In this document: in pieces, positions 10,214 to 32,000 of the stretch
Position numbering within the stretch: the first letter of the stretch is position 1
Layout: every line of letters starts with the position of its first letter
Program-made: the position numbers and the translations under genes
NCBI RefSeq assembly: GCF_000017845.1
Contig: NC_010546.1
Location: 4,680,001-4,712,000 of the forward strand
Direction of reading: 5' to 3'
Length of the DNA: 32,000 bases
From: Crocosphaera subtropica ATCC 51142
GTDB lineage: Bacteria; Cyanobacteriota; Cyanobacteriia; Cyanobacteriales; Microcystaceae
The notes under the pieces: model-generated
The model's input: the letters and a program-made list of their open reading frames with translations, nothing else
Told to the model about the DNA's origin: nothing
Databases searched by the model: none

Positions 10214-10320
10214 CTATACATCGGTAGGATGTCTTAAGAAATTACTTGATTTCTGCTCTTGACATCTCAAACTTAGTTAACTTAGATTAAGTGGAGGAAA
10301 AATCATGATTTTCCGAAAGA

Positions 10321-11169: not shown

Positions 11170-11186
11170 ATTTTCTTCTCTTTATA

Positions 11187-11225: not shown

Positions 11226-11229
11226 CCTT

Positions 11230-11433
11230 CTAAACTGTAGATAATCCTAACATTGCCCGTAACGTAAAATAAAGCAGAGAAAAGACTCCTAAGCCAATCC
11301 CTCCAACGGCGATCGCACTAACAGGATTTTTAAATAGGGGTTTAATCCAGTCAAAAAACACTAAAAACACCCCCAATGTAAAGCTAATCAGATAACGGGG
11401 ATAACGTGATACATTTTCAAAAAATTCTCCCAT
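11230..11433 (-). CDS. Small two-helix membrane protein, DUF751/Ycf33-like (family recalled from memory)
   Basis: 67 aa: MGEFFENVSRYPRYLISFTLGVFLVFFDW...AIAVGGIGLGVFSLLYF. It has two hydrophobic helices and contains a HIP1 site, consistent with a native core gene. Confidence 0.55.
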   Translation of the reverse strand: MGEFFENVSRYPRYLISFTLGVFLVFFDWIKPLFKNPVSAIAVGGIGLGVFSLLYFTLRAMLGLSTV

Positions 11434-11710
11434 GGCTCAACCTCTGTGATTTACAATCATTTCTTATAATATCAATACCTTTGATAACTGGAGTTTACGA
11501 ATGTGTGGCATTTTCCATGAGGACTCTTGATCCTAATAGAAGTTATTCAACAATTATTTACCCATTTTGCTAAGTTTGTGATATTTTGTTAAAGAAGACA
11601 AGGTGAGTCTTGTGTCTCAACCCTAATATAGTTTAGTAAAATGACCAATTTAAAATAAACAGACCTATATTTTTGAATCCGACAATTATTAATAAGGAGA
11701 TTAGTATTAT

Positions 11711-12904: not shown

Positions 12905-13011
12905 ATTTAGACGGTAGTTCTCTACATCAAGAGACTATTACCTTACTCAATATTAAGACTGAAGTGAAATCAATTCTGCTATTGATCCGAAATAAACTAT
13001 TGAGATTAACT

Positions 13012-13785: not shown

Positions 13786-13850
13786 ACTCTGAAACCTATA
13801 GACTTAAAATTTATATCAATAAAATCAAATGTTAGGGAGCAAAGATACTA

Positions 13851-15794: not shown

Positions 15795-15914
15795 GATAAG
15801 TGGTTGGATGAATATTTAATTTGTTAATCAATTACTATGAATAAAAATACTATGATATAATTAACAGGCTATCTTAATAAAGATTTTTGATATTTTTGAT
15901 ATAAAGAATAATTT

Positions 15915-16862: not shown

Positions 16863-16938
16863 GTAAAGTTTGTAAATATTGGTTTAATTGACTTTACACC
16901 TTTAGTTTATTAATCGTCTCCTCTCCTAAGAAACATTT

Positions 16939-17784
16939 ATGTCTGAAATATATCAAGAAAGAGATTGGGAAGTTATCGATTACCAAATCTATCATTTTCA
17001 AGAAGCCGACGTATTTTTTCGCGGGCCGCAACCTGAATTTCTTAAGCCCTACAATTATGCAATTTGTATAGGAGCCGCACAAACCTTTGGTTGTTATTGT
17101 GAAAAGCCCTTTCCTTATTTACTCCAAGAAAAATTAAACATTCCAATTTTAAACTGGGGAAGAGGTGGAGCTGGCCCTTATTTCTTCCTAAAAAGAGCAA
17201 AACTTCTCGATTATATTAATGAAGCAAAATTTGTCATCATACAAGTTATGTCAGGTCGCTCTCAAGGCAATTCCTTGTATCAAAGTGAAGGCATAGGAAG
17301 CTATACCAGAGCTTCGGATGGAATCAGAATTTCTTGTAAAAAAGCTTATCAAGAACTTTTAGAAAGGTATGATGAAACTTATGTCAAAAAAATTGTTGCT
17401 GAAACTCGTGTAAATTGGGTCAAAACTTACCAAGAATTTTTGAGTAAAATCACTATTCCTAAAATTCTATTTTGGTTTTCTTCTCGTTATTCTAATTATG
17501 AAGAAAGATATAAAAACACATCTAGTTTGTTTGGTAAATATCCTCAATTGATCAATCAAAAAATGGTTGAGCAGATCAAGCAATTTAGTGACGATTATAT
17601 AGAATGTATCTATCCTACAAATTCACCTAAATTACTAATTAATCGATTTACAGGAAAGCCAGCTAATATAGAAGATGAAAAAGGCAAAAAAACAATAACT
17701 CATGATTACTATTATCCAACACCAGAGTCCCATATAATGGCAGCCAATGTTCTAGAAAAAGTTTGTTGGAAATATTTGAATTAA
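16939..17784 (+). CDS. Conserved hypothetical protein of unknown function (possibly DUF6473-like; recalled, not verified)
   Basis: A 281-aa ORF in operon context with coding-like composition. The N-terminal pattern FRGP..(x)..YAICIGAAQTFGCYCEKPFPYLL...NWGRGGAGPYFF...IIQVMSGRSQGNSLY has no catalytic motif I can name. Confidence 0.55.
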   Translation: MSEIYQERDWEVIDYQIYHFQEADVFFRGPQPEFLKPYNYAICIGAAQTFGCYCEKPFPYLLQEKLNIPILNWGRGGAGPYFFLKRAKLLDYINEAKFVIIQVMSGRSQGNSLYQSEGIGSYTRASDGIRISCKKAYQELLERYDETYVKKIVAETRVNWVKTYQEFLSKITIPKILFWFSSRYSNYEERYKNTSSLFGKYPQLINQKMVEQIKQFSDDYIECIYPTNSPKLLINRFTGKPANIEDEKGKKTITHDYYYPTPESHIMAANVLEKVCWKYLN

Positions 17785-17826
17785 AATTATTTATTAAATT
17801 TTTAACTTTATCACTCACTTTTTATT

Positions 17827-18975
17827 ATGAACAATTATCAATCCAGATCTAATTATCATCATCCCTTGTGGTTAAGACTTAGTCCTAATCAAATGCTGAA
17901 AATTGCTAAATCAATTTTATCAAAAACCTTACCGTCCCATCTTAAAAAGAAATATTATCAGTGGCAAGCAAAAAATAAGCCTAAACCCCCTTTAGTTAAA
18001 GAAAGATTATTAGAAAACTATACCTATGATTTTGAGCGATTTTATAAATTTTCAACAGCTAAAAAAGGGTCTAATTTATCCTCAAATTTATTCCCAAAAT
18101 ACTCCCATTTGACTCAAACTAATCTAAAAGCTCTCATTACTAAAGATTATCACCGTATTGAAAAGGGTTTAGCCCTTAAAGAACCCAGAATAGGATTTGG
18201 GAAAAATACAGTCAACAATCTTATGGCGGCCATAGAACAATATCAAACCCTTTATGGATCTGATGAATTAGTTCAAATTTCAATTAATACGCTTTTAGCT
18301 TATTATCAATTTAATTATCAGCAAGGTCACGATAATAAACAACTATATGAACAAATCAACTCTGTAAAAGATAAGATAATCGAGGATCAAAAAATATCAG
18401 AAGGTGGAACTAAAACAATTACTAAAAAAGACATTTGGAAAAATGCTAAACAGGATCTAAAAAACTTTTTTGCCACTAGACACAGTATTAGACATTTTTC
18501 TAATGAAGAAGTTGACTTAAGTTTAATTAAACAAGCTGTAGAAATGGCGCAAAAAACTCCCTCTGTCTGTAACCGTCAAACCAGTCAAGTTTATGTATTT
18601 AGTGAGTTTCAGGATAAACAGAAAGTTCTCAGTTTTCAAAATGGCAATCGAGGATTTGGGGAACAAGCTAGCAAAGTTTTAATTGTTACTTCCAATCTAC
18701 AAAATTTTACCTCCGTGGGAGAAAGAAACCAATGTTGGATTGATGGGGGAATGTATGCCATGTCCCTCGTTTATGCCCTACATTCCCTGGGTTTAGGAAC
18801 CTGTTGCTTAAACTGGAGCGTTGAACATACCGTCGATCAACAACTTCGAGAAGCTGTAGGAATTAATGATTCACAAGCTGTCATCATGATGATTGCTGTG
18901 GGACATCTTCCTGATGAATTAAAGGTTGCTCAGTCTCCTCGAAAAAAAATTGAAGAAGTTTTAATTATCAAATAA
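17827..18975 (+). CDS. Nitroreductase-family flavoprotein with an N-terminal extension of about 200 aa
   Basis: The C-terminal 180 aa read RHSIRHFSNEEVDLSLIKQAVEMAQKTPSVCNRQ...GGMYAMSLVYALHSLGLGTC...IAVGH, the nitroreductase fold pattern. I do not recognise the N-terminal half. Confidence 0.78.
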   Translation: MNNYQSRSNYHHPLWLRLSPNQMLKIAKSILSKTLPSHLKKKYYQWQAKNKPKPPLVKERLLENYTYDFERFYKFSTAKKGSNLSSNLFPKYSHLTQTNLKALITKDYHRIEKGLALKEPRIGFGKNTVNNLMAAIEQYQTLYGSDELVQISINTLLAYYQFNYQQGHDNKQLYEQINSVKDKIIEDQKISEGGTKTITKKDIWKNAKQDLKNFFATRHSIRHFSNEEVDLSLIKQAVEMAQKTPSVCNRQTSQVYVFSEFQDKQKVLSFQNGNRGFGEQASKVLIVTSNLQNFTSVGERNQCWIDGGMYAMSLVYALHSLGLGTCCLNWSVEHTVDQQLREAVGINDSQAVIMMIAVGHLPDELKVAQSPRKKIEEVLIIK

Positions 18976-19018
18976 TACTGTAAGATATTTGTAACTTAAA
19001 TATAGGAGGCATAGAGAT

Positions 19019-20260
19019 TTGAAAGTCGTAATCACTGGCATAACAGGAATGCGGAACCGAGGAGTGGAAGCCATTGTTATTCCAACTATTGAGGGGTTGC
19101 GTACATATAATCCTAGTATTGATATTAATCTACTCACTAGAAGTCCAGATTATGATGAAATCCGTCTCCAACCTTATGAAGTTAACCTTCATCTCGAAAG
19201 TAAAAATCTAACAACAAAAACCCCATCAATAAGCCGTAAAAAACGGTTACTTTCTCAAGTTTTTCCCCTCTATAAATTACCCAAACCTCAACCAATACCT
19301 ACCTCTCGTATCATTCGTAAAGCTTCTGCTATTATTGCCTCTGGGGGTGATATTTTTAGTCCTGAATATCCCATCACGCCTCATCTAAAACCCCTCAAAC
19401 TCGCTTTGGATTTAGGAAAGTCGATCATATTTTTAGCTCAATCTATCAGTCCCTACAGAACTGATGAAGAAGCTGAATCATGGCTTGAAGTTGCTCGACA
19501 AGCTAAACTAATCACGGTACGGGAATTGGCAACCTATAAATATGTCACAGAAATCCTGGGACTGTCGACTGATTTGGTAAAATTAACGGCTGATCCGGCT
19601 TTTTTGCTGAAACCTTCCCCAGACACAACCATTAATAACCTTTTAGAAAGTTATGGTATTCCTAAACACCGTCCTCTTGTTGCTATTGCTACGAGTCAAG
19701 GGATTTGTAGTTATGCTTCGATTTGGGATCAACGTAAACACTTAACTGCTTGGCAAAAAGTCGTTACAACAATTCTAGAAGACCTAGATGCAGACGTGAT
19801 GATTATTCCCCATGTTCAAGAAGTTAGAGCAGGTAATGATGACCGACTTATTGCCACATCATTACTTCGCGCCTTAGACTATAATCCACGGGTTCATGTC
19901 GCAGGTGCAGATCATAGTGCCTCAGAATTTAAAGGACTAATTGGGAGATGTGAGTTAGTAATTGCTGAGCGAATGCACGCTGCGATCGCGGGTTTATCGA
20001 GTGGAGTTTGTACGTTAGCAGTTGGTTATTCTATTAAAGCACAAGGCATTATGGCTGATTTGGTAGGAGAAGATAATCTACAAGGGGGATTATTAATTAG
20101 CATCGATGACTTTCTAAATCCAGATTTGGCTTCTCAAGCTGTACACAATGCTTGGAAACAAAGGGATGAAATTAAGACCAAAATTCAAGATAAGTTACCC
20201 TATATTCAGAAAAAGGCTTTAAGTAATTTTGAGATTATTTTTAATACTCTTAAACACTAA
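19019..20260 (+). CDS. Polysaccharide pyruvyl transferase (CsaB/WcaK-like)
   Basis: GNRGVEAI near the N-terminus, GGDIFS, and ERMHAAIAGLSSGVCTLAVGYSIKAQG near the C-terminus, matching the PS_pyruv_trans pattern. TTG start with AGGAGG 8 nt upstream. Confidence 0.82.
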   Translation: MKVVITGITGMRNRGVEAIVIPTIEGLRTYNPSIDINLLTRSPDYDEIRLQPYEVNLHLESKNLTTKTPSISRKKRLLSQVFPLYKLPKPQPIPTSRIIRKASAIIASGGDIFSPEYPITPHLKPLKLALDLGKSIIFLAQSISPYRTDEEAESWLEVARQAKLITVRELATYKYVTEILGLSTDLVKLTADPAFLLKPSPDTTINNLLESYGIPKHRPLVAIATSQGICSYASIWDQRKHLTAWQKVVTTILEDLDADVMIIPHVQEVRAGNDDRLIATSLLRALDYNPRVHVAGADHSASEFKGLIGRCELVIAERMHAAIAGLSSGVCTLAVGYSIKAQGIMADLVGEDNLQGGLLISIDDFLNPDLASQAVHNAWKQRDEIKTKIQDKLPYIQKKALSNFEIIFNTLKH

Positions 20261-20306
20261 TAACTAAGTGAATCGAAAGCTTTATAAAATTTGAGATTTG
20301 GGAAGA

Positions 20307-21122
20307 ATGAATTATCAATTACAGAAACCTAATTTAGAACAAACTGTTATCTTTCTCCATATTCATAAAACAGGTGGAAGAACATTGGAGGATATACTTA
20401 AGAAGCAATATGACCCACAAAAAATTTTATCAACAGATAATTTGAAATGGAGACAATCTCACGAAACTTTAAGTCAATACAGTCCAGCAGAATTAGAAAA
20501 CATTAAACTAATTAAAGGACATATGTATTTTGGAATTCATAACATATTATTACAACCTTTTACTTATATTACTATTTTAAGAGATCCCATCGAAAGAGTT
20601 CTTTCGCTCTATTGCTATATTCGAGATGAACCCAAAAATCCGCAGCACAAAGAATTAATAGAAAAAGGGATGAATTTAGAACAATTTCTATGCAGTGGTA
20701 TTGCAAAAACAGCCGAAAACGGTCAGACAAGAATTTTATCAGGCATTCAAGCAGAAAATAAACCTTGTTCTGATGAAATGTTTAAGTTAGCGAAGGAAAA
20801 TTTATCTAAATATTTTTCGGTTGTTGGTCTGACAGAACAATTTGATGAAACTTTAATTCTATTAAAACGTCTATTAGGATACAATATACCCATTTATTCT
20901 ACAAAAAACAAAAACAAAAGGCGTTTATCTATTGATGACATATCAGCAAAGGAAAGAAAAATGATAGAACAATATAATAGTTTTGATCTTCAATTATATG
21001 AATACGCTTATCAGCTTTTTGAAGAACAAAAGAAACAACAAGGATACTTATTTAATCTGGAATATACTTATTTTAAATCAAAATCGTTAGTTAAAAAATA
21101 TTTTATCAATTCAGGTAAATAA
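20307..21122 (+). CDS. Sulfotransferase family 2 (HS6ST/CHST-like motifs)
   Basis: VIFLHIHKTGGRTLEDIL is the 5'-PSB motif and ILRDPIERVLSLYCYI is the 3'-PB motif. I prefer ATG 20307 to the TTG at 20298 used by the ORF track. Confidence 0.8.
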   Translation: MNYQLQKPNLEQTVIFLHIHKTGGRTLEDILKKQYDPQKILSTDNLKWRQSHETLSQYSPAELENIKLIKGHMYFGIHNILLQPFTYITILRDPIERVLSLYCYIRDEPKNPQHKELIEKGMNLEQFLCSGIAKTAENGQTRILSGIQAENKPCSDEMFKLAKENLSKYFSVVGLTEQFDETLILLKRLLGYNIPIYSTKNKNKRRLSIDDISAKERKMIEQYNSFDLQLYEYAYQLFEEQKKQQGYLFNLEYTYFKSKSLVKKYFINSGK

Positions 21123-21190
21123 TAGCATTTTAAGTGAATTTTAAACCAGACTCTTTTTCCATAAATTAAATTTTATTAAAAAGACAACAC

Positions 21191-22276
21191 ATGAACCACA
21201 AAATTCTCTGGCTAAGACGGCGTTTTGATTGGATGGGTAAGCATAGTGGTTATGACCAACTATGCGAATCTATGTCTACACTTCTTCCTCACGATACTTA
21301 TAAAAGTGTATGGCAACATCCAGGACAACCCCAAAAAAAAATTTTGCGTTCAATGGTAGAACGAGTGGGAAAAAAAGCCAAAGGTAGTCCTATGTATGCT
21401 CTTGATAGTACCACAGCAGAAATTAAGACTATCCTAAAAAGTTTACAATGGCATCCTGATTTAATTCATGTCACTTATGTGGAAAATCAATTAGGAATAT
21501 TACCAAACTGGAAAGAGCGTTTATCTTGTAAAATAATTGGCACATCCCATCAACCTGCAGGATGGTGGCGTTTGGTTCATAAACATCCTAAGAAAATTGC
21601 TAATTTAGATGCACTAATTGTTCTTGGGAGTCGAGAAGTTTCTTACTTTGAACAGTATCTACCTGGACGAGTTTTTTTTATTCCTCACGGAGTTGATACT
21701 GATTTTTTCTGTCCTCCATTGGAAAAAGAAAAGAGACAAGTAAGGTGTGTTTTTTCAGGAAAACATCTTCGAGATTTATCCACTTTAGCAATAGTAATTG
21801 ATCAAGTTCTTAGTAAAAATCCAGAAATTCAATTTGACATCATCATGCCTCGAAATCCTGGGGATCGTACAAATCCGACTCTTATTCGTATTGCTCGCCA
21901 TTCACAGGTTCACTGGTATCAAGGTGTTTCAGATAACCGCTTAAGGAAACTCTATCAACAAGCAAATATGTTAGTTTTACCAATTATCGACTGTACTGCT
22001 AATAATGCTTTATTGGAGTCTATATCCTGCGGTTTGCCGGTAATTTCTAATGATGTAGGGGGTTTACTTGACTATACAAGAGATACCTTTGCTGAACTTT
22101 TACCTATTGGTGATGTGGATGGATTTGTTAATGCTATATTGAAACTGACACAGGATTCAGAGGAACAGCAAACAAGAAGTCAAGCTGCGAGGAAATTTGC
22201 CGAGGAAGAGCTTGATTGGATTAAAATAACTAAAAAAACTATTGAGATTTATCAAAAAATCTTAACTAATAATTAA
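21191..22276 (+). CDS. Glycosyltransferase, GT4-like (GT-B fold)
   Basis: C-terminal Glycos_transf_1-type region: VFSGKHLRDL..., NNALLESISCGLPVISNDVGGLLDY. Confidence 0.78.
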   Translation: MNHKILWLRRRFDWMGKHSGYDQLCESMSTLLPHDTYKSVWQHPGQPQKKILRSMVERVGKKAKGSPMYALDSTTAEIKTILKSLQWHPDLIHVTYVENQLGILPNWKERLSCKIIGTSHQPAGWWRLVHKHPKKIANLDALIVLGSREVSYFEQYLPGRVFFIPHGVDTDFFCPPLEKEKRQVRCVFSGKHLRDLSTLAIVIDQVLSKNPEIQFDIIMPRNPGDRTNPTLIRIARHSQVHWYQGVSDNRLRKLYQQANMLVLPIIDCTANNALLESISCGLPVISNDVGGLLDYTRDTFAELLPIGDVDGFVNAILKLTQDSEEQQTRSQAARKFAEEELDWIKITKKTIEIYQKILTNN

Positions 22277-22320
22277 GGATAATAAAACTTTAAAAATTTC
22301 AGATTTCAAAGGATTAAGTA

Positions 22321-23523
22321 ATGATATTTTTCGTATCAAAAACCCTCACTCATAACAGTGGATTGCCCCAAGCAGGAAAAGATATATTAATTGCTTTGTT
22401 AACCACTGGCGAGCCGATAATAGTTGTTACTAAAACAAAATGTTTACTTCCTCAAAAAATTGAGAATCAACTTGTTCCTTTACCTCAGTGGGTATTCCCA
22501 ATTGAAAAAATTGCTTCTGCCAAATCAATTCAAAGAAAGCGACAACTTTTAAGTTTTCTAATCCAATGGATTCAAAAAAAAATTTTAGAAATAATTAAAA
22601 ATCAAAGAGATAAACAATTAAAAGCTTACAATCCTCATAGGATTGTAGTTAATGGATTAAGCAACCATACATTTTGGCAAAATATTAGTCCCGAAGTGAC
22701 GGAACAAATGGTCTTAATCGTTCATGTTTCCCCTAGACATTTCGTTCCACCAAAGTCTGAGACGTTAGACTGGGCAATCAAAATAATGAATCAATATAAA
22801 GCTTTGATATTTGTTTCATCTCGATGCCGAGACGAATGGTCATCATTAATTGATGTTAGTAATAAAAGAATTTCTTATATTCCTAATTGCTGCAAAGAAG
22901 ATGAAATTAAGAAAATAACCTCAGTTACCAAAGAAAAAACCAAAGAAAAATTAAGTTTATCTCTAAAAGATTTTGTAGCGGTTTGTGTCGCAAGTTTGCA
23001 ACCTCGGAAGAATCAAACGTTGTTATTAGATGTTTTTCCAAAATTAATACAAATTGTTCCAAATTTAAAACTTTATTTGATTGGTCCAATCAGTTTAAAT
23101 CCTTCCTGGGCAAAATCTCTGTTAAAAACAATTAAAGTTAAGGGTTTCAGTAATCAAATACAATATTTGGGGAGTAAAGAGAATGCAAAAGAGTTTATTT
23201 ATGCTGCCGATGTTTTATTATTACCTTCTTTGGCAGAAGCAATGCCATGTGTCATATTAGAAGCAATGGCTTTAAAAACACCAATAATTGCTTCTGAAGT
23301 TGATGGTATTCCAGAGTTAATTGAGAATGAATCAACAGGCTTTTTGTTTTCTCCAAAAGATCCGCAAACTTTAGTTGAAGCTTTCAAAAAGATGGCTAAT
23401 AATTTAGAGGAAACTCAAAAATATACAGATAATGCTTATCATAAGTATTGGCAAGAGTTTTCGCAGAGTAAGCAAATAGAAAGATATCATCGATTTTTGG
23501 CAAACTTGAATAATGGTAACTAA
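22321..23523 (+). CDS. Glycosyltransferase, GT4-like (GT-B fold)
   Basis: SLQPRKNQ..., LLLPSLAEAMPCVILEAMALKTPIIASEVDGIPELIENESTGFLF is the classic EX7E region. AAGGA RBS present. Confidence 0.85.
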   Translation: MIFFVSKTLTHNSGLPQAGKDILIALLTTGEPIIVVTKTKCLLPQKIENQLVPLPQWVFPIEKIASAKSIQRKRQLLSFLIQWIQKKILEIIKNQRDKQLKAYNPHRIVVNGLSNHTFWQNISPEVTEQMVLIVHVSPRHFVPPKSETLDWAIKIMNQYKALIFVSSRCRDEWSSLIDVSNKRISYIPNCCKEDEIKKITSVTKEKTKEKLSLSLKDFVAVCVASLQPRKNQTLLLDVFPKLIQIVPNLKLYLIGPISLNPSWAKSLLKTIKVKGFSNQIQYLGSKENAKEFIYAADVLLLPSLAEAMPCVILEAMALKTPIIASEVDGIPELIENESTGFLFSPKDPQTLVEAFKKMANNLEETQKYTDNAYHKYWQEFSQSKQIERYHRFLANLNNGN

Positions 23524-23580
23524 AACATTAATGTGTTATAGTTTAATCAATATCATAGTATAAAATGAAGTTTAAAAAAA

Positions 23581-24588
23581 ATGACTAAACCAACTGTTTT
23601 TGTTCATACAAGCTGCCATGAAATAATGTCAGGAAAGATTGCTGCTTACAGTCTTAAACGGATGTCTAAAAATACTGATAAGTTTGATGTTAAAATCATT
23701 GAATTAGAACATTATCCCCATTTAATGAAGTATCATGGTTACCGATGTATTCGTAATAAACGGGAAGCCGCTTGGTATAATAATGTTCCTCAATCTTTCT
23801 TGCCATTGCGCTTTATTGTCCCTCAATTGATGGGTTATGAAGGAAAAGCCGTTGTCATAGACCCTGATATTTTTGCAGTGGCAGATATCTATGAATTACT
23901 AACAAAAGACATGGGAAATAAAGCTGTTTTAGCTAGACCCATTTATTCAAAAAATAGAGTTATTGGTCATAATTCTAGTGTCATGCTTCTTGACTGTTCT
24001 AAATTACAACATTGGCAATGGGAAAAAGAAATTGATGAAGTTTTTAATAAAAAAAGAGATTTACAAGAATGGATATCTATACAAACAGAGTCAAGAGAAA
24101 ATATAGGGGAACTAGAAGAAGAATGGAATCATTATGACATTCTCAATGAACACACTAAGTTGTTACATAATACAACTCAAATTACACAACCTTGGAAAAC
24201 AGGTTTGCTTTATGATACATCCCGTTTAAATAATAATGTACAAGGATTTGCTCGTTTTGGAATTGAGTTAGTTTCTAGTTATCAAAAAATAGCTAAAGCT
24301 CCTTCCAAAAGGAAAGCATTGAAATCTATGATGCAGGAACTTTTATTACAAAAGGAAAGAAAATTATATCGTCAACATCCTGACCCAAATCAAGAAAATC
24401 TTTTCTTTTCATATCTGAAAGAAGCGTTATTAGAAGGAATTATTAGTGAAGACTTTATTAAACAACAAATCAATTACAAACATATTAGAAAAGATATTTT
24501 TGAAATTTTAAACAAGGTCAACTATTCTACTGAAAATGTATTACAAAGAATCACTAAAAAAACAGCTAAACTACACTTACAAAAATAA
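23581..24588 (+). CDS. Hypothetical protein, possibly a GT-A-fold (GT8-like) nucleotide-sugar transferase
   Basis: A 335-aa ORF, last gene of the same-strand cluster. KAVVIDPDIFAVADIYEL resembles a DxD motif context and SSVMLLDCSKL resembles GT8-like cores. Assignment is weak. Confidence 0.45.
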   Translation: MTKPTVFVHTSCHEIMSGKIAAYSLKRMSKNTDKFDVKIIELEHYPHLMKYHGYRCIRNKREAAWYNNVPQSFLPLRFIVPQLMGYEGKAVVIDPDIFAVADIYELLTKDMGNKAVLARPIYSKNRVIGHNSSVMLLDCSKLQHWQWEKEIDEVFNKKRDLQEWISIQTESRENIGELEEEWNHYDILNEHTKLLHNTTQITQPWKTGLLYDTSRLNNNVQGFARFGIELVSSYQKIAKAPSKRKALKSMMQELLLQKERKLYRQHPDPNQENLFFSYLKEALLEGIISEDFIKQQINYKHIRKDIFEILNKVNYSTENVLQRITKKTAKLHLQK

Positions 24589-24735
24589 ATACTATAAATT
24601 GTAAGTAATATAATTTCAATCTCCTGAACTTGATGGGTATATAGTCATCCATAATCTCTTTCCTTATCCCTGATCATAAAATATATAGACTCAGGAAAAC
24701 TATCACCAATTATTTTCTTAGTAAAGGTTTTCTGT

Positions 24736-24765
24736 CTGCATTGGGTTTAACATAACCCAATGCAG
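24736..24765. other. Perfect 12-bp-stem hairpin (CTGCATTGGGTT-taacat-AACCCAATGCAG) in the intergenic region after the polysaccharide cluster
   Basis: Read directly. There is no U-tract on either strand, so it is not a canonical intrinsic terminator. Confidence 0.5.
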
Positions 24766-24912
24766 CTACTCAAGTTCCTGATGTTATCTATAGTTTTTAT
24801 CATCTTAAATTCTTAGCAATTATATCTAAATTCTTAAAATAACAATGAATAAATTTGGTGAATATAATATTCTGTTAACAGAAGAATATTTTAATAAGCT
24901 GATTAGTTAAAA

Positions 24913-25047
24913 ATGAAAATAAATGAAAAATATTTACATCCCACATCTCTAGACGAAGCAAAAATAATTCAACAACAGTTGAAAAAACAAGTAATAACTA
25001 AAGATCAACTACAAACAGTTAAGTATGTAGCAGGGGTCGATGTCGGT
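24913..25047 (+). pseudogene. nfi: Endonuclease V (nfi) 5' fragment, about 45 codons, truncated by insertion of the downstream element
   Basis: MKINEKYLHPTSLDEAKIIQQQLKKQVITKDQLQTVKYVAGVDVG matches the Nfi N-terminus up to the conserved G(A/V)DVG Asp motif. After nt 25047 the frame runs into AT-rich low-complexity sequence and stops at 25161, whereas full-length Nfi is about 220 aa. Confidence 0.7.
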
Positions 25048-25151
25048 AATCTAATACAAAGAATATATAATAAACAACAACAACAAAGACCCCCTTTTTT
25101 ATACACTGTTATACTATATCTTAATACTTTTTTATATTTATATGGTGTTAA

Positions 25152-26234
25152 ATGTCTTTAAGTCTTCAGAAGGGCATCGACCCTCATACCCAGGAGATCA
25201 TTTGGTTAGTGCTTGATGAGGATTACCAAGTGGTAGAACCAATTCAACGTTACCTAACCTTCCTATCAGGGACAAAATCCCCCAATACTGTCGAATCCTA
25301 CGGTTACGGGCTAAAAGCTTGGTGGGAGTTCCTACAAAGTAAAACCCTCAACTGGAAAGAAGTTCAGTTAACGGATTTAGAAGACTTTGTTCATTGGTTA
25401 AGAGTAGGAGATACCAGTAACATCGTGTCCATGCAACCAGTTAAAGCAAAACGTAGCGAACGTAGCATCAATTTGGCACTAACGGCTGTTACCACCTTTT
25501 ATGAGTACCACGACGCTCATAAAAACGTTGACCCCAAAAAGTTTGACCGTCTCATTACTACCAGGGGAAATACTCGTAGAGGGTTATTAGATGGCATTAG
25601 TAAGTCCAAACCAACCCGACAGAAATTAGTCAAACTTAAAGAACCTAAAAAGTTTCCTGGTTGTTTAACAGATGAACAACTGGAAACCTTAGTTAATAGC
25701 TGTCACCGACTTAGAGATAAATTCCTAATCCTGTTACTCAATGGAACAGGAATTAGAGTAGGAGAATTACTCGGATTACAGCACGAAGACATAGGAGACG
25801 GTAGCGATTACTTTATCCATGTCAGAAAGCGTCGTCACAATAATGAAGCTAGGGCAAAAGGACAAGAAAGAACCATTCCTGTTATTCCTGAACTTCTGCA
25901 AATGTACAACGATTATCTCATTTATGAGTACCCAGAAGTGGAATCAAACTATGTTTTCGTAAATATCTGGGAGGGTGCAATAGGGATGCCCATGAAAGCC
26001 CCTGTCATTAATACCATGTTTACTCGGTTGAGTAAAAAGACAGGAATTAAAGTCTATCCTCACCTCTTTCGTCATACCTATGCTACTCGTTTATTGAAAG
26101 CAGGTTACTCACCAGAACGGGTCAAGTATCTATTAGGACATACCAGTATTCAAACCACATTAGATATTTACTCTCATGTTATCAGTGAAGCAGATTTAAT
26201 GACCGTTATTGAGGAGGAGGACAATAATGAGTAG
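25152..26234 (+). CDS. Tyrosine recombinase/integrase, first of trio (Tn554 TnpA-like in size; RIT-like arrangement)
   Basis: Catalytic set present: GIRVGELLGL (Arg), HLFRHTYATRLL (HxxR) and LLGHTSIQTTLDIYSHV (His...Tyr). The N-terminal SAM-like core-binding region contains T..SY...LK.WW.F. Confidence 0.9.
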   Translation: MSLSLQKGIDPHTQEIIWLVLDEDYQVVEPIQRYLTFLSGTKSPNTVESYGYGLKAWWEFLQSKTLNWKEVQLTDLEDFVHWLRVGDTSNIVSMQPVKAKRSERSINLALTAVTTFYEYHDAHKNVDPKKFDRLITTRGNTRRGLLDGISKSKPTRQKLVKLKEPKKFPGCLTDEQLETLVNSCHRLRDKFLILLLNGTGIRVGELLGLQHEDIGDGSDYFIHVRKRRHNNEARAKGQERTIPVIPELLQMYNDYLIYEYPEVESNYVFVNIWEGAIGMPMKAPVINTMFTRLSKKTGIKVYPHLFRHTYATRLLKAGYSPERVKYLLGHTSIQTTLDIYSHVISEADLMTVIEEEDNNE

Positions 26235-27687
26235 TATTCCTGATTGGATTTTAGAACCTGAAAGTTGGTTGAGGGAACAGAATAGTAAAGCTCAACAACT
26301 CTTACTCAATCCTTTACTAAAAAAGGATATTTGGAAAACCAGAGAGGATTTAGGATTAGACATTAATCAGCATGGAAAAGTATTAACTATTCCCTTTCAA
26401 GGTATTGAACAAGATTGGTTGAAGTTACTGGCTATGCTGTATGTTTTAGTGAGAAGTCAACGCAAGTTATCTGCTAGATATATTAGACATGATGTTCATT
26501 ACTTAAGTCGATTTTCACGATTCCTAACTCAGCAATCAATCTTAACCCCTGAACAAATTAATGACCAACTGTTTGAGGAGTTTGATTACTATTTACGGTC
26601 ATCTAAATTATCACAAAGATCCATCTCACTTCATTACATGACCCTAATTAACTTTTTCAATCTCTGTCGTCAAGAAGAATGGTTAGATGTTAACACTTAC
26701 TGGTTCAAGGGAAAATATAAAAACTCAACTCCTAAAAATGATGACATTGAGTACATTCCTGAAGAAGTTTGGCAACAATTAGATGAGCATCTCCATCATT
26801 TGCCTGACCCTATTCAAAGGATGGTATTAATCATTAGAGGGACAGGGTTACGCATTGGAGAACTGCTTAATTTACCCTTAGATTGTTTACGAAGACGAGA
26901 TAAACAATGGCGTTTAAGATTTCTAACTGAAAAGTACAAAACCGAAGATGAAATACCCATTTGTAGTGAATTAGCTGCGGTTGTTCAAGAACAGCAAGAC
27001 TATATCAGGGAGCATTTTGGGAATAATTATAACAATTTATTTGGAAGTAATGATGGAAGTCATCACTACAAACCAGCCCCTAGAATTATGAAATTAGACA
27101 CCTTTAGTCGCTACCTGAATAAATTAGCTCAAAACCATAATATCAGCACAAAAGAAGGTGAAGTTTGGCATTTTCGGTCACATCAATTTAGAAGAACATT
27201 GGCTACTGTGATGACCAATGCAGGAGTCAGAGACTTAATTATTCAAAAGTACCTGAGACACCGTTCTCCTGATATGCAGAACCATTATAAACACTTACTC
27301 AAAGAGGTATTAGGGGAAGAATATCAGGAGTTAATGAAAGAGACAAAATATGTTGACAGTACAGGTTCTTTAGTCGCTACTCATAAACCCAAAAACCCCA
27401 TCACTGAGATGGTACGACGAAAAATGTATGAGATTACCACTCAGTATGGGGAATGTCATCGACCTATTTTAAAATCTCCCTGTCAAACAGTTAATGCTTG
27501 TTTACGGTGTGAACATTGGCGAACTTCTACAGAGGATTTGGATTATCTAAAAGAGGATCTCAACCGAATAGAAACTGAGATAAATATTGCTAATAAGTTA
27601 GGAATGGTTAGGCAAGAAAAAGGTTTAATCAGTGACCAGCAACGTTTAAGTGTTCGTGTTCAAGGATTGGAGAAAGTCAATGATTGA
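26227..27687 (+). CDS. Tyrosine recombinase, second of trio, with a C-terminal Cys cluster
   Basis: GLRIGELLNL, HQFRRTLATVM and YLRHRSPDMQNHYKHL supply R, HxxR, H and Y. I chose ATG 26227, which has GAGGAGGAGG 6 nt upstream and overlaps the previous stop by 8 nt (ATGAGTAG). C-x8-C-x5-C-x2-C lies at nt 27454-27510. Confidence 0.85.
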   Translation: MSSIPDWILEPESWLREQNSKAQQLLLNPLLKKDIWKTREDLGLDINQHGKVLTIPFQGIEQDWLKLLAMLYVLVRSQRKLSARYIRHDVHYLSRFSRFLTQQSILTPEQINDQLFEEFDYYLRSSKLSQRSISLHYMTLINFFNLCRQEEWLDVNTYWFKGKYKNSTPKNDDIEYIPEEVWQQLDEHLHHLPDPIQRMVLIIRGTGLRIGELLNLPLDCLRRRDKQWRLRFLTEKYKTEDEIPICSELAAVVQEQQDYIREHFGNNYNNLFGSNDGSHHYKPAPRIMKLDTFSRYLNKLAQNHNISTKEGEVWHFRSHQFRRTLATVMTNAGVRDLIIQKYLRHRSPDMQNHYKHLLKEVLGEEYQELMKETKYVDSTGSLVATHKPKNPITEMVRRKMYEITTQYGECHRPILKSPCQTVNACLRCEHWRTSTEDLDYLKEDLNRIETEINIANKLGMVRQEKGLISDQQRLSVRVQGLEKVND

Positions 27688-29470
27688 AATTGATTGGAAG
27701 AAAGACTATAAAGGCGAATTCGTCTGTCCTGAGTGTAATACTTTAGGAATGGTACATAGAGGTTTTCATAAACTTAACAATAAGAGACAATTTTTTTGTC
27801 GTAGTTGTAGAAAACTTCTTTCAGAATCTTTTTCTATAAACATTAAAGCGGTAGAAGATCCAGTTAATCTTGGAGTTGTTTGGTATACAAACCATAGATA
27901 CAAAGATTTTAGCTGTCAAAAATGTGAAGATAACAATATTTTCTTCACCGGAATTCAGAGCAGCAAAAAGCGTTTTCAATGTAAAAGCTGTAAAAAGTAT
28001 CACTTCGATTTCTGTACATTAAATGTCAATGTAATAAGTCGCTTTAGAGGAAGCTTGTTACCCTCTACTATTTTTAACTTTAGTGATGATAACTGGGATT
28101 TAAGAGCAATAAACCCTAACTTTGACCAACGAGACATAGCCCATTCCACTGCTAACTTTAGCTCAATTAAACCAGACTGGTTTAAACAAGAAGCCAAAAA
28201 ACATATTTATCATTTATGTAAAGCTGGTCAATCTAACACCTTTGGGACAATTAAACATCATTTATCAGCCTTAAGAATTTTCTCTCGTTATCTCAGTCAA
28301 ACTAATATAACTGGTTTTGACCAAATTAATCGCAGTATAATCTTAGATTACTTAGCTAAAGAACAGAAAGTAACTAAAGATAAACTCGGAGGATTACGCA
28401 GTTTTTTTACCGCAGGAACAATTCGAGGTTGGTTTACCATTGACCAGGATATTATTCGAGATGAAGACTATCCTAAACGGCGTAGAGGCAACCCAGATCC
28501 CTTATCTGATGTGGTTCGAGAACAAATTGAACAGAACCTACATATGTTACCAGATCCCATTGTCAGAATGTGGTTGGTTTGTTTCTTTGCAGCCATGCGT
28601 CCCTCAGAATTAGCCTTACTAAAAAAAGACTGTTTAGTTCAAGAAGGACAACATTGGAAATTAGTCTGGCAAAGAAAAAAGACAAAGGATTATCACGAAA
28701 TTCCTATTAGTAGAACCATTGCTAAAGTGGTTCAAGAACAACAAGAATACATTAATAATTTGTGGGGTGATGAATGGGACTATCTGTTTTGTCATTATCA
28801 TGGCTTGTCTGAAGTCCATCTATCACAACCTAAGTTAAAACCTATCAGAAAAGTTATTCCTCAATCGAGAAATCCGCTAGTAACTGTTATCAACTGTCTA
28901 ATTAAATCTGAAAACATCTTAGATGAAAATGGTCAATTAGCTGAATTCACACCAAAGCTTTTAAGACCGACTCGTTTAACTCAACTCTTTGAACAAGGAC
29001 ATGATTTAGCGGTTGTTAGTGCATGGGCAGGACATAAACATTTCGCCACAACCAGCACTTATTATACCGAAGTAAGTTGTGACTTAATGGAACGAGAAGC
29101 AGGTCATATTCAACAAGCATTAGTTAATAGTGATGGACACCGTTTACCCTACGAATCTTTACCTAAATCCTTCTGGGAAAAGCCTCAAGCTCATAAATTA
29201 GAACTGTCTGGCACTCATATCAATACCCCCATTTATGGGTATTGTGGACTCGATTTAGACCAAGATTGTGACAAGTTTAGAGCCTGTTATACTTGTCAAT
29301 CTTTTGTCGCTGTTCCTGAAAAGCTTCCCCAATATCTCAAAGTTCGAGATGAGTTAAGAGGCAAAGAAGCCAAAGCCTTAGCCAGTGGTCAAGACGTATT
29401 AGTTGAACAATTTAGTAGACAAGCTGACCAACTGGACAAAATCATCGCTAGTTTACAGGAGGCAGCATGA
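27680..29470 (+). CDS. Tyrosine recombinase, third of trio (Tn554 TnpB-like in size), with an N-terminal double zinc ribbon and a C-terminal Cys cluster
   Basis: AMRPSELALL, LLRPTRLTQL and WAGHKHFATTSTYYTEV supply R, xxR, H and Y. N-terminus: CPECN-x19-CRSCRK and CQKCED-x18-CKSCKK. I chose ATG 27680, which has a GGAG RBS and overlaps the previous stop by 8 nt (ATGATTGA). Confidence 0.8.
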   Translation: MIEIDWKKDYKGEFVCPECNTLGMVHRGFHKLNNKRQFFCRSCRKLLSESFSINIKAVEDPVNLGVVWYTNHRYKDFSCQKCEDNNIFFTGIQSSKKRFQCKSCKKYHFDFCTLNVNVISRFRGSLLPSTIFNFSDDNWDLRAINPNFDQRDIAHSTANFSSIKPDWFKQEAKKHIYHLCKAGQSNTFGTIKHHLSALRIFSRYLSQTNITGFDQINRSIILDYLAKEQKVTKDKLGGLRSFFTAGTIRGWFTIDQDIIRDEDYPKRRRGNPDPLSDVVREQIEQNLHMLPDPIVRMWLVCFFAAMRPSELALLKKDCLVQEGQHWKLVWQRKKTKDYHEIPISRTIAKVVQEQQEYINNLWGDEWDYLFCHYHGLSEVHLSQPKLKPIRKVIPQSRNPLVTVINCLIKSENILDENGQLAEFTPKLLRPTRLTQLFEQGHDLAVVSAWAGHKHFATTSTYYTEVSCDLMEREAGHIQQALVNSDGHRLPYESLPKSFWEKPQAHKLELSGTHINTPIYGYCGLDLDQDCDKFRACYTCQSFVAVPEKLPQYLKVRDELRGKEAKALASGQDVLVEQFSRQADQLDKIIASLQEAA

Positions 29471-30288
29471 GTAAAAAAACCAAAGAGGAAAGAATTAAGA
29501 CCCTCAAAGCCACACAAGAAGCCCGAAAGCAAGAAACCTTAGATAAGGTCAATAAAGCCATAGAAAGGTTACTGAAAACAGGGGCAAAAATCAGCTTCCA
29601 AGCTATTGCTAGAGAAGCCAATGTTAGTGTTCCTTATCTATATAAATATCCTGAACTAAAAGAACGCATCCAACAGCTACGTTCACAGCAAAGGAAGATG
29701 CCAAGTCATCAGGTTAACCAACCTCCTATAAATGCGAAAACTCATTCTCAAATGGTAGGTCGTTTGAAGAAACGGATTCAACAATTAGAAGAAGAAAATA
29801 AGGAACTGAAACGGAAAAATGAAGCCTTAGCAGGACAAGTTTATCGGGTTCATACCTTACAAGAACAAGTTGAGAGGCAAAAAGACTTAATCATGACCCT
29901 TGAATCTCGACTTAAAGAACCACCCAAAGCTGAAGTAATACCTATTACCAGTAAAGCAAAGCCTCAAGTTAATGAGCAGATTAAAACTCAATTAGATGAG
30001 TTAGGAATCCCTCTTAATACTACCCTAACTAAAACTATTAAAGGAGCTTCTGAAGATACTGTCTTAGCTGCTATAGAAGCGGTTAAGTATCAATTAGAAA
30101 CGAGAGAAGTTGATAACCCTGGCGGACTATTAAATAAGGCTATCCAAGAAGGATGGACTAAACCTGAACCTAATTCTGTTCCCTCTCCTCCCAAACCTAA
30201 AATCTACCATCCTACTGATGATGAAGAGAAGAAAAAGCTCTCATCAAAAGACTTAGCTAAACTCAGTAACTTATTCAAGGATAAATAA
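29467..30288 (+). CDS. HTH plus coiled-coil protein (N-terminal part TnpC/DUF6262-like by recollection) with an extra C-terminal domain
   Basis: The ATGA overlap with the third recombinase indicates coupling. ISFQAIAREANVSVPYLYKY is HTH-like. RLKKRIQQLEEENKELKRKNEALAGQ is heptad-like. The C-terminal motif is VDNPGGLLNKAIQEGWTKPE. Confidence 0.6.
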   Translation: MSKKTKEERIKTLKATQEARKQETLDKVNKAIERLLKTGAKISFQAIAREANVSVPYLYKYPELKERIQQLRSQQRKMPSHQVNQPPINAKTHSQMVGRLKKRIQQLEEENKELKRKNEALAGQVYRVHTLQEQVERQKDLIMTLESRLKEPPKAEVIPITSKAKPQVNEQIKTQLDELGIPLNTTLTKTIKGASEDTVLAAIEAVKYQLETREVDNPGGLLNKAIQEGWTKPEPNSVPSPPKPKIYHPTDDEEKKKLSSKDLAKLSNLFKDK

Positions 30289-30290
30289 CT

Positions 30291-31595
30291 ATGACTAATA
30301 ATATTACCCCTCAGAACATTGAAGCAGAAGAAAGCATTTTAGGAGGTATTCTCTTAGATCCTAATGCTATTAGTAGAGTAGCAGACATCTTACCTCCTGA
30401 AGCTTTTTATGTCATGGCTCATCAACAAATTTATCAAGCAGCTTTAGACCTTTACCATAAAGACCAACCTTGTGATTTTATGACGGTCAAGACTTGGTTA
30501 AAAGACTATAAACTTTTTACTAAAGTAGGGGGAGAGAATAAGTTAACCCAATTACTTGATAGGACAGTTTCTGCGGTTAATATAGACCGTTACGCTGCTT
30601 TAGTAGTTGATAAGTATCAGCGTCGTTTATTGATTAATGCAGCTCGTGAGATTGAAGAATTGGGTTATGATACGGTCACGGAATTACCCTCTGTTTTGGA
30701 ACTCTCAGAAGAAAAGTTATTTAAAGTTACAGTTGATGAAAAAGATCCCTTTCAACCTCAACCCATTCATGACTGTCTGAGGGATGTTTTTAATGAATTA
30801 GAAGAAGGGAAAAGTCCTGCTTATTCGACTGGGTTAACTGACTTAGATAAGTTAACAGGAGGATTGACAAGAAAAGACTTAATTATTATTGCTGGTCGTG
30901 CCTCAATGGGTAAGACTTGGTTCTCTATTTATCTAGCTAATCATGTAGCTATGACTTATCAAGTTCCTGTGGTCTTCTTCTCAGCAGAGATGTCTAAAAC
31001 TCAGTTAACTAAACGGTTTCTAGCCATACACTCAGGGATAGATTCGTCAAGATTAATGCGGAATGAAATTTATCAAGATGAATATGATTCCTTAGTTAAA
31101 GGATTAGGAATACTGACTGAGTTACCCATTATTATTGATGACACTCCTGCTAATACCTTAACTCCTTCAAGAATGCGCTCTGTGTTACGCAGAATTAAAG
31201 CAGAAAAGGGAAGCATTGGGTTAGTGGTAATGGATTATATTCAAAAGTTAGGAGACAGAGCAGCAGGGAATAGAGCGCAAGCTGTAGGGAAGTTTTCAGG
31301 GGCATTTAAGGACATAGCGAAAGAGTTTGATTGTCCTTTTATTGCCTTAGCACAGATTAACCGAGGGGTAGAAGGACAAGCTAACAAACGTCCTTTTATG
31401 AGTGATATAAAAGACTCTGGGGATATTGAACAGGATATGGATCTCGGACTGCTATTATATCGGGATGAATATTATAATCCTGACACTCAAGATAAGGGGA
31501 TTATGGAGATTAATGTGGCTAAAAATAGAAATGGACAAACGGGAGTTTGTCAGGTGCAGTTTAATCCTGTAGTTGGAGTATTCTTCAATAGTTAA
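30291..31595 (+). CDS. dnaB: Replicative DNA helicase, DnaB family (element-borne copy)
   Basis: The N-terminal domain PQNIEAEESILGGILLDPNAI...HQQIYQAALDLY is present. Also Walker A GRASMGKT, Walker B VVMDYIQKL, LAQINRGVE and DIEQDMD. The ATG is 2 nt after the previous stop. Confidence 0.9.
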   Translation: MTNNITPQNIEAEESILGGILLDPNAISRVADILPPEAFYVMAHQQIYQAALDLYHKDQPCDFMTVKTWLKDYKLFTKVGGENKLTQLLDRTVSAVNIDRYAALVVDKYQRRLLINAAREIEELGYDTVTELPSVLELSEEKLFKVTVDEKDPFQPQPIHDCLRDVFNELEEGKSPAYSTGLTDLDKLTGGLTRKDLIIIAGRASMGKTWFSIYLANHVAMTYQVPVVFFSAEMSKTQLTKRFLAIHSGIDSSRLMRNEIYQDEYDSLVKGLGILTELPIIIDDTPANTLTPSRMRSVLRRIKAEKGSIGLVVMDYIQKLGDRAAGNRAQAVGKFSGAFKDIAKEFDCPFIALAQINRGVEGQANKRPFMSDIKDSGDIEQDMDLGLLLYRDEYYNPDTQDKGIMEINVAKNRNGQTGVCQVQFNPVVGVFFNS

Positions 31596-31654: not shown

Positions 31655-32000
31655 TTATAAATTGAGAAATGACCATAACTTTTGAAGATTAAAATCATTC
31701 CAATTTAAAGTCACAGAACTCTCTATCATTAAATCCCCTTGTCTCAGTGTAGTTATCAATGCTGAATCATGTTCTAAACTCGAAAAAAGAGCTTCTATAA
31801 CCTGTAATTGATTTCGAGGAAAGGTATAGTAAACTTTATCCTCTTCGACTCTAACCCCTTCTGGTAACTTATCATTTGGGATTTTACCACCTAAAAAAGT
31901 TTTCCACCCTGCGATTAGATAACGGTAAATAATCGAGTCAGTTTGAAATTCAGGGGAGGTTAATAAACGAAGTTGTCCTTCAATAGAATCTTCATGAAGA
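31655..32000 (-). CDS. Hypothetical protein, C-terminal 114 codons; the 5' end lies beyond the window. Not in the supplied ORF track because no start codon is inside the window.
   Basis: My own translation of the minus strand from nt 31999 is open throughout: LHEDSIEGQLRLLTSPEFQTDSIIYRYLIAGWKTFLGGKIPNDKLPEGVRVEEDKVYYTFPRNQLQVIEALFSSLEHDSALITTLRQGDLMIESSVTLNWNDFNLQKLWSFLNL. The TAA stop is at 31655-31657. I recognise no motif. Confidence 0.45.
   Translation of the reverse strand, partial: LHEDSIEGQLRLLTSPEFQTDSIIYRYLIAGWKTFLGGKIPNDKLPEGVRVEEDKVYYTFPRNQLQVIEALFSSLEHDSALITTLRQGDLMIESSVTLNWNDFNLQKLWSFLNL

Follow-up and report, generated by a model that had tools for sequence, protein, structure and literature searches.

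The window analysed here, a 32,000-nucleotide stretch of the 4.93-Mb chromosome of Crocosphaera subtropica (Cyanothece sp.) ATCC 51142, contains five consecutive open reading frames (ORFs) on the + strand, spanning positions 25152 to 31595, whose stop and start codons overlap or abut in the ORF list of the window. Exact look-ups identified the five proteins as cce_4561 to cce_4565. Gene A (cce_4561, 25152-26234) encodes a tyrosine recombinase of 360 amino acids (aa), genes B (cce_4562, 26227-27687) and C (cce_4563, 27680-29470) two further tyrosine recombinases of 486 and 596 aa from their ATG codons, gene D (cce_4564, 29467-30288) a 273-aa protein with a TnpC-like (DUF6262) N-terminus, and dnaB (cce_4565, 30291-31595) a replicative helicase of 434 aa. 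Alternative upstream starts exist for B (TTG at 26209, giving 492 aa) and for C (GTG at 27650, giving 606 aa). The junctions read ATGAGTAG for A/B (26227-26234), ATGATTGA for B/C (27680-27687), ATGA for C/D (29467-29470) and TAActATG for D/dnaB (30286-30293), and purine-rich, Shine-Dalgarno-like stretches are found upstream of B, C and D. An earlier reading of the letters of the window, referred to below as the original prediction, had described a coupled five-gene unit, and all ORFs and the four junction strings were found exactly as it gave them. Judged from their sequences, they make up the transposition module of a compact transposon that occurs across the cyanobacteria and belongs to the Tn554/GInt superfamily; here it is inserted in the endonuclease V gene nfi, and it carries its own DnaB.

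All three recombinases matched Phage_integrase in Pfam (E = 1.5e-29 for A, 1.3e-19 for B and 4.6e-13 for C), and A also matched SAM_1. The canonical Tn554 reference proteins were taken from plasmid record OL539428 (locus L066). A aligned with TnpA (36.8% identity over 337 aa, E = 1.7e-73), while both B (29.7% over 435 aa, E = 4e-46) and C (25.2% over 480 aa, E = 2.7e-28) aligned with TnpB; B and C are 27% identical to each other. A can then be assigned as a TnpA orthologue and B and C as two diverged TnpB paralogues, a duplication of TnpB. The protein sizes had been said to fit neither RIT elements nor Tn554 cleanly; they are indeed not RIT-like, but the Tn554 scheme does fit when homology to TnpA, a duplicated TnpB and TnpC is considered. 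Catalytic residues were read off an alignment of A, B and C with Tn554 TnpA and TnpB and an E. coli XerD sequence. A (R202, K236, H304, R307, H330, Y340) and B (R209, K236, H319, R322, H345, Y354) have the full RKHRHY set. C shows R307, K334, K426, R429, H452 and Y462, with KxxR in place of HxxR, so that K426 replaces the first His alone; the other five residues were invariant in 20 homologues. The Arg / xxR / His / Tyr set previously claimed for each recombinase was thus confirmed by alignment, and A, B and C all look catalytically competent. The N-terminus of C has two Cys4 zinc-ribbon-like motifs, with weak zinc-ribbon matches in Pfam; in the same 20 homologues cysteines C40, C43, C82, C101 and C104 were invariant and C16, C19 and C79 at least 90% conserved.

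The helicase has both DnaB domains (Pfam N-terminal PF00772, 9e-32; C-terminal PF03796, 1.2e-77), scored 472.7 bits against the NCBIfam DnaB equivalog TIGR00665 (cut-off 385) and aligned over its full length with chains of solved DnaB hexamers (Geobacillus DnaB, 2r6a). Against three close relatives its dN/dS was 0.05-0.06, compared with 0.09-0.12 for A and D, values that point to strong purifying selection on the element helicase lineage. In a collection of 5.8 billion proteins, the 120 best homologues were 66-93% identical and 431-453 aa long. This clade is at least 59% identical internally and at most 56% identical to other DnaBs: among 50%-identity cluster representatives, the best match outside the clade reached 56% and the next 44-51%, several of the latter being intein-containing DnaBs of 640-1,477 aa, one of them from the cyanobacterium Baaleninema. 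DnaBs of cyanobacterial plasmids were 43-46% identical to cce_4565. Inteins are typical of chromosomal cyanobacterial dnaB, and the intein-bearing cyanobacterial DnaBs formed a separate group at about 50% identity. By these comparisons the helicase lineage is confined to the elements described here. That cce_4565 is the sole dnaB of ATCC 51142 is very unlikely, because it lies inside a transposon that has a 95%-identical relative elsewhere in another species, because C. chwakensis has at least three members of the 90% cluster of cce_4565 and because of the separate intein-bearing group. The same points speak indirectly against a housekeeping status of cce_4565. On plasmid1 of Chondrocystis sp. 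NIES-4102 a decayed copy (L067, 5159-13005) was seen with insertion sequence (IS) transposase genes between B and C and with dnaB annotated in two pieces (dnaB2_2 and dnaB2_1), a naming that shows how element DnaBs are routinely annotated as ordinary replicative helicases.

Relatives of the module were collected with a profile made from an alignment of C homologues and run on one genome per species. The resulting 62 loci were all labelled cyanobacterial and were often multi-copy. Linkage was counted in the 55 modules with at least 1.5 kb of sequence beyond D: dnaB begins 2-33 bp past D in 41 of them, and no dnaB is present in 14. Of the DnaB homologues at 67-80% identity, three were sampled; each is preceded by three integrase genes and one for DUF6262, and it overlaps D by 8-11 bp. 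The order A-B-C-D-DnaB recurs in dozens of independent cyanobacterial loci, which is far beyond chance. The smallest versions were found in Calothrix PCC 7716, where two copies (L039, L040) are 100% identical over 6,715 bp, and in one Waterburya metagenome-assembled genome (MAG), where the copies (L034, L035) share 6,753 bp; those of other Waterburya MAGs are about 8.9 kb long. The 6.7-kb versions contain A, B, C, D and DnaB only, with approximately 110 bp and 140 bp of end sequence. As the linkage in 41 of 55 modules and the content of these minimal elements indicate, DnaB is a core gene of the element, and the proposal that the helicase is hard-wired to the recombinase operon, and not a chance neighbour, is borne out.

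On plasmid pSTA7437.01 of Stanieria cyanosphaera PCC 7437 (L079, 4395-9305) a TnpA-like protein, one 557-aa recombinase and a DUF6262 protein are followed by a DnaB of 67% identity, and second, divergent modules in L017 and L060 resemble this two-recombinase version. Elements with two recombinases and elements with three thus both carry the helicase along. Tn554-type layouts on a Bacillus plasmid and on a Pseudarthrobacter plasmid have two and three recombinases, respectively, with DUF6262; the Tn554 superfamily is architecturally plastic. The Stanieria element is surrounded by plasmid-borne dnaX, holA and dnaN genes, and its protein accession numbers suggest identical copies elsewhere in the genome. 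In a DnaB-less module of Rivularia (L062, 2659-4890), the gene of a RecD2-type SF1B helicase stands 0.9 kb past D and is directly followed by another Tn554-like module, possibly an alternative helicase association, in a single case. Two different A-B-C-D-DnaB elements stand in tandem in L014 (7475-21513), the second about 1.6 kb past the end of the first, and in L052, L060, L017 and L064 two modules lie close together, some head to head; such pairs hint at insertion hot spots or nesting.

Protein D matched DUF6262 in its N-terminal 120 residues (Pfam, E = 2.6e-14), and residues 15-126 aligned with Tn554 TnpC at 36.6% identity (E = 1.5e-20). DUF6262 corresponds to the TnpC family (PMC11947258). 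D carries approximately 150 aa beyond TnpC (273 versus 125 aa). In the AlphaFold model (mean pLDDT 80.8) a TnpC-like helix-turn-helix (HTH) domain at 1-77 is followed by a coiled coil of 60 residues (90-150), a four-helix domain (170-228), a disordered linker and a C-terminal helix at 260-268 (LAKLSNLF). In this model linker and terminal helix are arranged as is usual for a tethering peptide. Two classes of D protein can be distinguished, which diverge only downstream of the conserved four-helix domain. Those encoded with DnaB have a low-complexity linker followed by a conserved C-terminus, '..L..LSN(I/L)F..'; in a sample of 16 modules with and 8 without DnaB, the '..L..LSNIF' tail was found in D of DnaB modules and in none of the others. 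Those without DnaB are 295-311 aa long and end in a different conserved domain of about 55 aa (FNEWFPLAKKKGLV...GEW..FEEML..YPL). Pfam gave no match for the C-terminal regions of either class. The DnaB-less class was seen in L023-L026, L033, L042, L045, L046, L053, L011, L021, L056 and L062, and its terminal domain might bind a host factor instead of an element helicase.

The relation between D and DnaB is also reflected in their co-variation, measured as the Spearman correlation of pairwise identities across 24 complete modules. D and DnaB (rho 0.69), A and D (0.68), A and DnaB (0.56) and B and C (0.67) correlated with each other; values for B or C against D or DnaB were between -0.18 and 0.11, and those for B/C against A were weak (0.22-0.28). 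The same division is visible between the window (25152-31595) and its relative in C. chwakensis CCY0110 (L016, 7472-13913), with 92-95% identity for A, D and DnaB and 61-64% for B and C. These sequence comparisons show a mosaic element, with A, D and DnaB as its backbone and B/C as an exchangeable cassette, which may set target specificity.

These data bear on the reading in which DnaB is a very successful cargo gene without any role in movement; it might be a back-up helicase, a decoy against phages or plasmids, or a means of addiction. GInt cargo normally stands directly after the fourth gene (PMC5385486), 14 modules do without DnaB, and the element in the window carries other defence-looking cargo (a dynamin/LeoA-like gene, described below), all of which speak for it. 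Cargo, however, is variable by nature, and yet DnaB is fixed in position, with a gap of 2-33 bp or an overlap with D; it is present in minimal elements without other cargo and in two- and three-recombinase lineages, its sequence varies together with those of D and A, and D has a specific tail to match it; no PADLOC hits were obtained. We therefore consider a mere passenger role very improbable.

The limits of the element were determined by comparison with relatives. Upstream of A, a 5' fragment of nfi (24913-25047, + strand) contains about 45 codons of the host endonuclease V gene, which is truncated by the insertion. It matched NCBIfam deoxyribonuclease V (NF008629) at profile positions 2-36 of 218 with E = 1.1e-5 and, weakly, Pfam Endonuclease_5 at positions 1-26 (E = 0.14); a phmmer search against the PDB gave no match, the query being too short. 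The fragment forms the first 45 residues of an 82-codon ORF that then diverges. The left end lies at 25046-25048, as the window and L016 share sequence from T25047 onwards and differ before it (GTCGGT versus GAAAAT), and A begins 105 bp from this end. The left junction, with the presumed crossover core GTCGGT, can thus be placed at 25042-25047 (+ strand) with an uncertainty of about 3 nt; left flanks of many relatives end in NTNGGT. The terminal motif GTAATCTAATACAAAG (25046-25061, + strand), probably a recombinase core-binding site, is conserved in the left-end alignment of 31 loci and agrees with the reverse complement of the right end of L016 (GTTATCTAGTACACAG) at 13/16 positions by hand count and 11/14 in a scan. 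TTATCNNATACAAA was found at both termini of L015, L018, L011 and L010, and (G)TTATCNNATACAAA was obtained from collapsed-repeat contigs, whose limits coincide exactly with the element ends. A sub-terminal motif, AAACAACAACAACAA (25072-25087, + strand), lies inward of the left end by about 25-30 nt, a position shared by nearly all relatives, and elements of the L027, L028, L061 and L022 type have an inverted copy at the right end. The termini can be described, on these alignments, as short imperfect inverted repeats of approximately 14-16 bp; the crossover core that they flank measures about 6 bp. The original prediction had reported no terminal inverted repeats at the left end; short imperfect ones (GTTATCTNATACAAA) became visible once the right ends of relatives were known. 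Long inverted or direct repeats at the termini were sought by local alignment in four elements with exact limits, and the scores of their ends stayed within the range of shuffles. A regular expression for the right end was discarded as an unusable motif, since it recovered the expected end in only 4 of 23 relatives and gave one unrelated match.

In L016, bchE is interrupted by a 10.9-kb insertion (7367-18239), and the break falls between positions 248 and 250 of its profile. The whole segment from A to DnaB, with two or three cargo genes, is therefore a single inserted unit. The claim that the operon is the core of a mobile, integrative element was upheld. For the window copy, the right end was absent from the window and from Logan contigs reaching about 34.9 kb in window-equivalent coordinates (L002 was used to extend the window). 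By analogy with L016 it should lie approximately 11.5 kb from 25047, ending in ...CTGTGTACTAGATAAC plus 6 nt, with nfi resuming from codon 37. The junction hexamers of L016, attL GAAAAT and attR TGGAAT, stand beside the inverted end motifs, and junction-to-junction similarity is limited to about 3-6 nt. These features are consistent with a clean insertion without evident target duplication, with junctions in the style of Tn554 and of integrative elements that circularize with a strand bias (SEs). Target genes vary (nfi in the window, bchE in L016), copies in the same genome have unrelated flanks, and the target preference is short and NTNGGT-like only. Both tRNA and Rfam scans of the window were empty, so the element is not a tRNA-targeting island.

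The difference between attL and attR raises the question of whether the helicase might assist recombination itself, for example by carrying branch migration across 6-bp cores that are not identical, or by removing covalently or tightly bound recombinases from the intermediate, instead of building a replication fork. Kaplan and O'Donnell are said to have found in 2002 that DnaB drives branch migration in vitro, and with GAAAAT and TGGAAT as cores in L016 heterology must indeed be crossed. The model for SEs also requires removal of a covalently linked integrase (PMC10214605). Nevertheless, cce_4565 keeps the complete replicative architecture, including the primase-binding N-terminal domain, and Tn554, SEs and GInts cross heterologous cores without a helicase of their own. 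We regard such a helper function as very improbable, to the same degree as the passenger role.

Copies that are 99.9-100% identical occur several times in some genomes, and they are found on plasmids as well as on chromosomes. Terminal overlaps indicating circular assembly were absent from the 24 contigs checked, which included element-sized ones, and IMG/VR contained no related loci, i.e. there was no association with phages. Here a further reading, that of the original prediction, has to be considered, in which the circle formed by conservative excision is kept as a small plasmid-like replicon, with D acting as an origin-binding initiator at AACAAC repeats and loading DnaB. The helicase would then serve maintenance or amplification of the excised form and not the transposition step. 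D has two DNA-binding-like helical domains and a tail specific to DnaB-bearing elements, a AACAACAACAA repeat is conserved near the ends, and the location of copies on both plasmids and chromosomes fits as well; integrative elements with replication modules of their own are known, such as phage-inducible chromosomal islands (PICIs), replicating integrative and conjugative elements (ICEs) and tycheposons. The element, however, has no primase, partition or copy-control gene, the AACAAC motif and the core of D are shared by DnaB-less elements, the short, element-sized contigs had no terminal overlap, and none of the related loci appeared in viral or episome-like collections. An episomal life of the excised form is therefore unlikely, though less so than the helper and passenger roles.

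The reading we favour, and hold to be probable, is replication-coupled transposition, with D recruiting the element's own helicase; its replication step is the inferred part. In this scheme D would be placed at the synapse of attL and attR by its TnpC-like HTH domain and coiled coil, and its C-terminal helix would tether or load the element DnaB. A replication fork would then run through the element, either copying it out from the donor site or replicating a circle before re-integration, so that the donor copy would be kept and copy number would rise. For SEs a copy-out route dependent on replication has been proposed, and the same is suspected of GInts and Tn554 (PMC10214605); our reading agrees with the suspicion in the literature that replication is needed, and no empty site left, by SEs, by some GInts and perhaps by Tn554. 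This mechanistic step is much less secure than the assignment of the element and the place of DnaB as an integral part of it. Several points weigh against replication-coupled transposition. Since 14 of 55 modules, Tn554, GInts and SEs move without a DnaB of their own, the helicase is not mechanistically indispensable. The element has no recognisable initiator, primase or loader, and its non-coding DNA amounts to only about 250 bp. A Foldseek comparison of the D fold with the PDB gave no informative match, with nothing below E = 2, and the correlation of the D tail with DnaB is based on 24 aligned sequences that are phylogenetically non-independent. Finally, polyploid cyanobacteria could also gain identical copies by cut-and-paste from one copy of the chromosome to another. 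The fuller proposition, that this is the first known tyrosine-recombinase transposon with a core helicase of its own, loaded at the synapse by the D tail and moving by dedicated-fork copy-out, is put forward tentatively, as somewhat less probable than replication-coupled transposition as such.

Expression of the module was considered at the left end. The reading frame of the nfi fragment stays open through the left end, with its stop at 25159-25161, 7 nt past the ATG of A. The same open frame leads into A in L016 with bchE; in other subfamilies stop codons are present there. A promoter scan gave fewer promoter-like sites than shuffled sequences and none inside the left end, and the best two sigma-70-like matches in the region 24813-25161 lie upstream of the nfi fragment. 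In the subfamily of the window and L016, tnpA may thus be expressed from the disrupted host gene; as a family-wide strategy, read-through from the host gene into A was rejected, the frame being open in this subfamily only. Further upstream, at 24736-24765, an intergenic perfect 12-bp stem with a 6-nt loop (CTGCATTGGGTT TAACAT AACCCAATGCAG) precedes the nfi fragment; no T-run follows this hairpin and it was not called as a terminator.

Downstream of dnaB, the window contains the 3' part of a 202-aa cargo gene on the - strand (31655-32000), which runs to about position 32263 past the window and had no family match. The next cargo gene, beyond the window, encodes an 859-aa protein with TerB and a dynamin-family GTPase; the cargo as a whole corresponds to 2986-6239 in L002 and 13977-17982 in L016. 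The GTPase gene is 91% identical in the collinear L016, where the 668-bp segment with the 202-aa gene is absent and a 420-aa partner gene follows the GTPase. The GTPase matched the PADLOC LeoA and LeoBC models with E = 6e-22 and 2e-10, respectively, and this cargo may be an anti-phage module resembling Eleos. Elsewhere the window consists of ordinary chromosomal DNA, with ftsW/rodA, gyrA, a PatA-like regulator, ileS, recO and a low-GC polysaccharide cluster. The latter (11500-24600, GC 0.27-0.35) includes a Wzt-like ABC ATPase, an FG-GAP/ASPIC protein, a sulfotransferase, a pyruvyl transferase and several glycosyltransferases, and may be a horizontally acquired island beside the transposon; the GC skew changes sign near 11.5 kb.

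The family has been known under a loose label: the UniRef name of cce_4564, 'Tn554-related, transposase C', dates from the 2008 annotation. The linkage of its recombinases to a replicative helicase appears undescribed. In line with the original prediction, a search of a literature library that included full text found no Tn554 or RIT family in which a recombinase trio is tied to such a helicase, and nothing that links Tn554-, GInt- or SE-type elements with a replicative helicase or with cyanobacteria. Tn554 relatives have been given only for Staphylococcus and Enterococcus, and GInts and SEs only for Proteobacteria (PMC10214605); an older survey adds Actinobacteria to the hosts of Tn554, and Bardaji et al. 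report gin operons in other phyla too (PMC5385486). The elements described here can be regarded as a cyanobacterial Tn554/GInt branch with a duplicated, apparently catalytically intact TnpB, an extended TnpC and a core DnaB. They extend Tn554-type elements to Cyanobacteriota, where they are abundant, multi-copy and apparently active, and among the genes annotated as 'replicative DNA helicase' in genomes and MAGs of cyanobacteria, many belong to transposons and are not housekeeping dnaB. Tn554, GInts and SEs spread antibiotic-resistance and virulence genes. Replication-dependent copy-out has been proposed without a genetic handle, which the DnaB subfamily now offers: elements with DnaB and a matching adaptor tail, and sister elements without both, constitute a comparative and experimental system in culturable cyanobacteria. 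If the proposed mechanism is true, copy-out would be an intrinsic and genetically separable step, and these elements would give the first direct handle on how Tn554, SEs and GInts move without empty sites.

Among known systems, the Tn554 family (Tn554, Tn558, Tn6188 and Tn6674 of Staphylococcus, Enterococcus and Listeria, with actinobacterial relatives) has orthologous TnpA (37% identity), TnpB (25-30%) and TnpC/DUF6262 (37%). Common to both are overlapping genes that read inward from the left end and short imperfect inverted repeats at the termini. The junctions of L016 are, in addition, consistent with the clean insertion of Tn554 at a core of about 6 bp whose sequence is not the same in attL and attR. 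Tn554, however, has exactly tnpA, tnpB and tnpC, whereas four recombination genes and DnaB are found here, the Stanieria relative having the three-gene set plus DnaB. Unlike in Tn554, TnpB is duplicated (486 aa, and 596 aa including zinc ribbons), TnpC has grown from 125 aa to 273 aa, DnaB belongs to the core and the host phylum is Cyanobacteriota; Tn554 highly prefers one site, att554 in radC, whereas nfi, bchE and other genes are hit here.

With GInts, compared by their described architecture, the elements share overlapping ORFs A-B-C-D near the left end and, in the window and L016, cargo after DnaB. GInts have a co-transcribed four-gene 5' operon of three recombinase-like genes and a small TnpC-related fourth gene followed by cargo, are bounded by imperfect direct repeats of 10-17 nt, and in some members leave no empty site (PMC5385486). 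GinC of GInts lacks catalytic residues (the first Arg or RHRY), whereas C keeps R307, K334, R429, H452 and Y462. GInts are also large (median 35 kb), site-specific, proteobacterial and usually single-copy; the elements described here are as small as 6.7 kb, multi-copy and equipped with DnaB. SEs resemble them in a four-protein tyrosine-recombinase machinery with a TnpC-like fourth protein and in the logic of a 6-bp footprint. The SE order, however, is intA-tfp-intB-srap with a non-catalytic Tfp, whereas here the gene order differs and the middle protein B has the full RKHRHY set; SEs occur in Gammaproteobacteria only and encode no helicase. Matches of A to NCBIfam GmtY (41.7 bits, cut-off 340) and of D to VPA1267 (NF040697; 21.6 bits, cut-off 90) were both sub-threshold.

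RIT elements likewise have three adjacent, overlapping tyrosine recombinase genes, but their RitA, RitB and RitC are 315-410 aa long, there is no fourth gene and the terminal inverted repeats are longer, compared with 360, 486 and 596 aa, a TnpC-like fourth gene and a 14-16 bp motif here. RIT identity was rejected on protein family (best matches to TnpA and TnpB), sizes, the fourth gene and the ends. Finally, the known integrative elements with their own replication modules, namely PICIs, with the Staphylococcus aureus pathogenicity islands (SaPIs), replicating ICEs and the tycheposons of Prochlorococcus, use a single integrase together with a primase-helicase or Rep initiator and an origin, and are much larger. 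Unlike these, the cyanobacterial element is a transposon with several recombinases; it encodes a bona fide DnaB and lacks a recognisable initiator.

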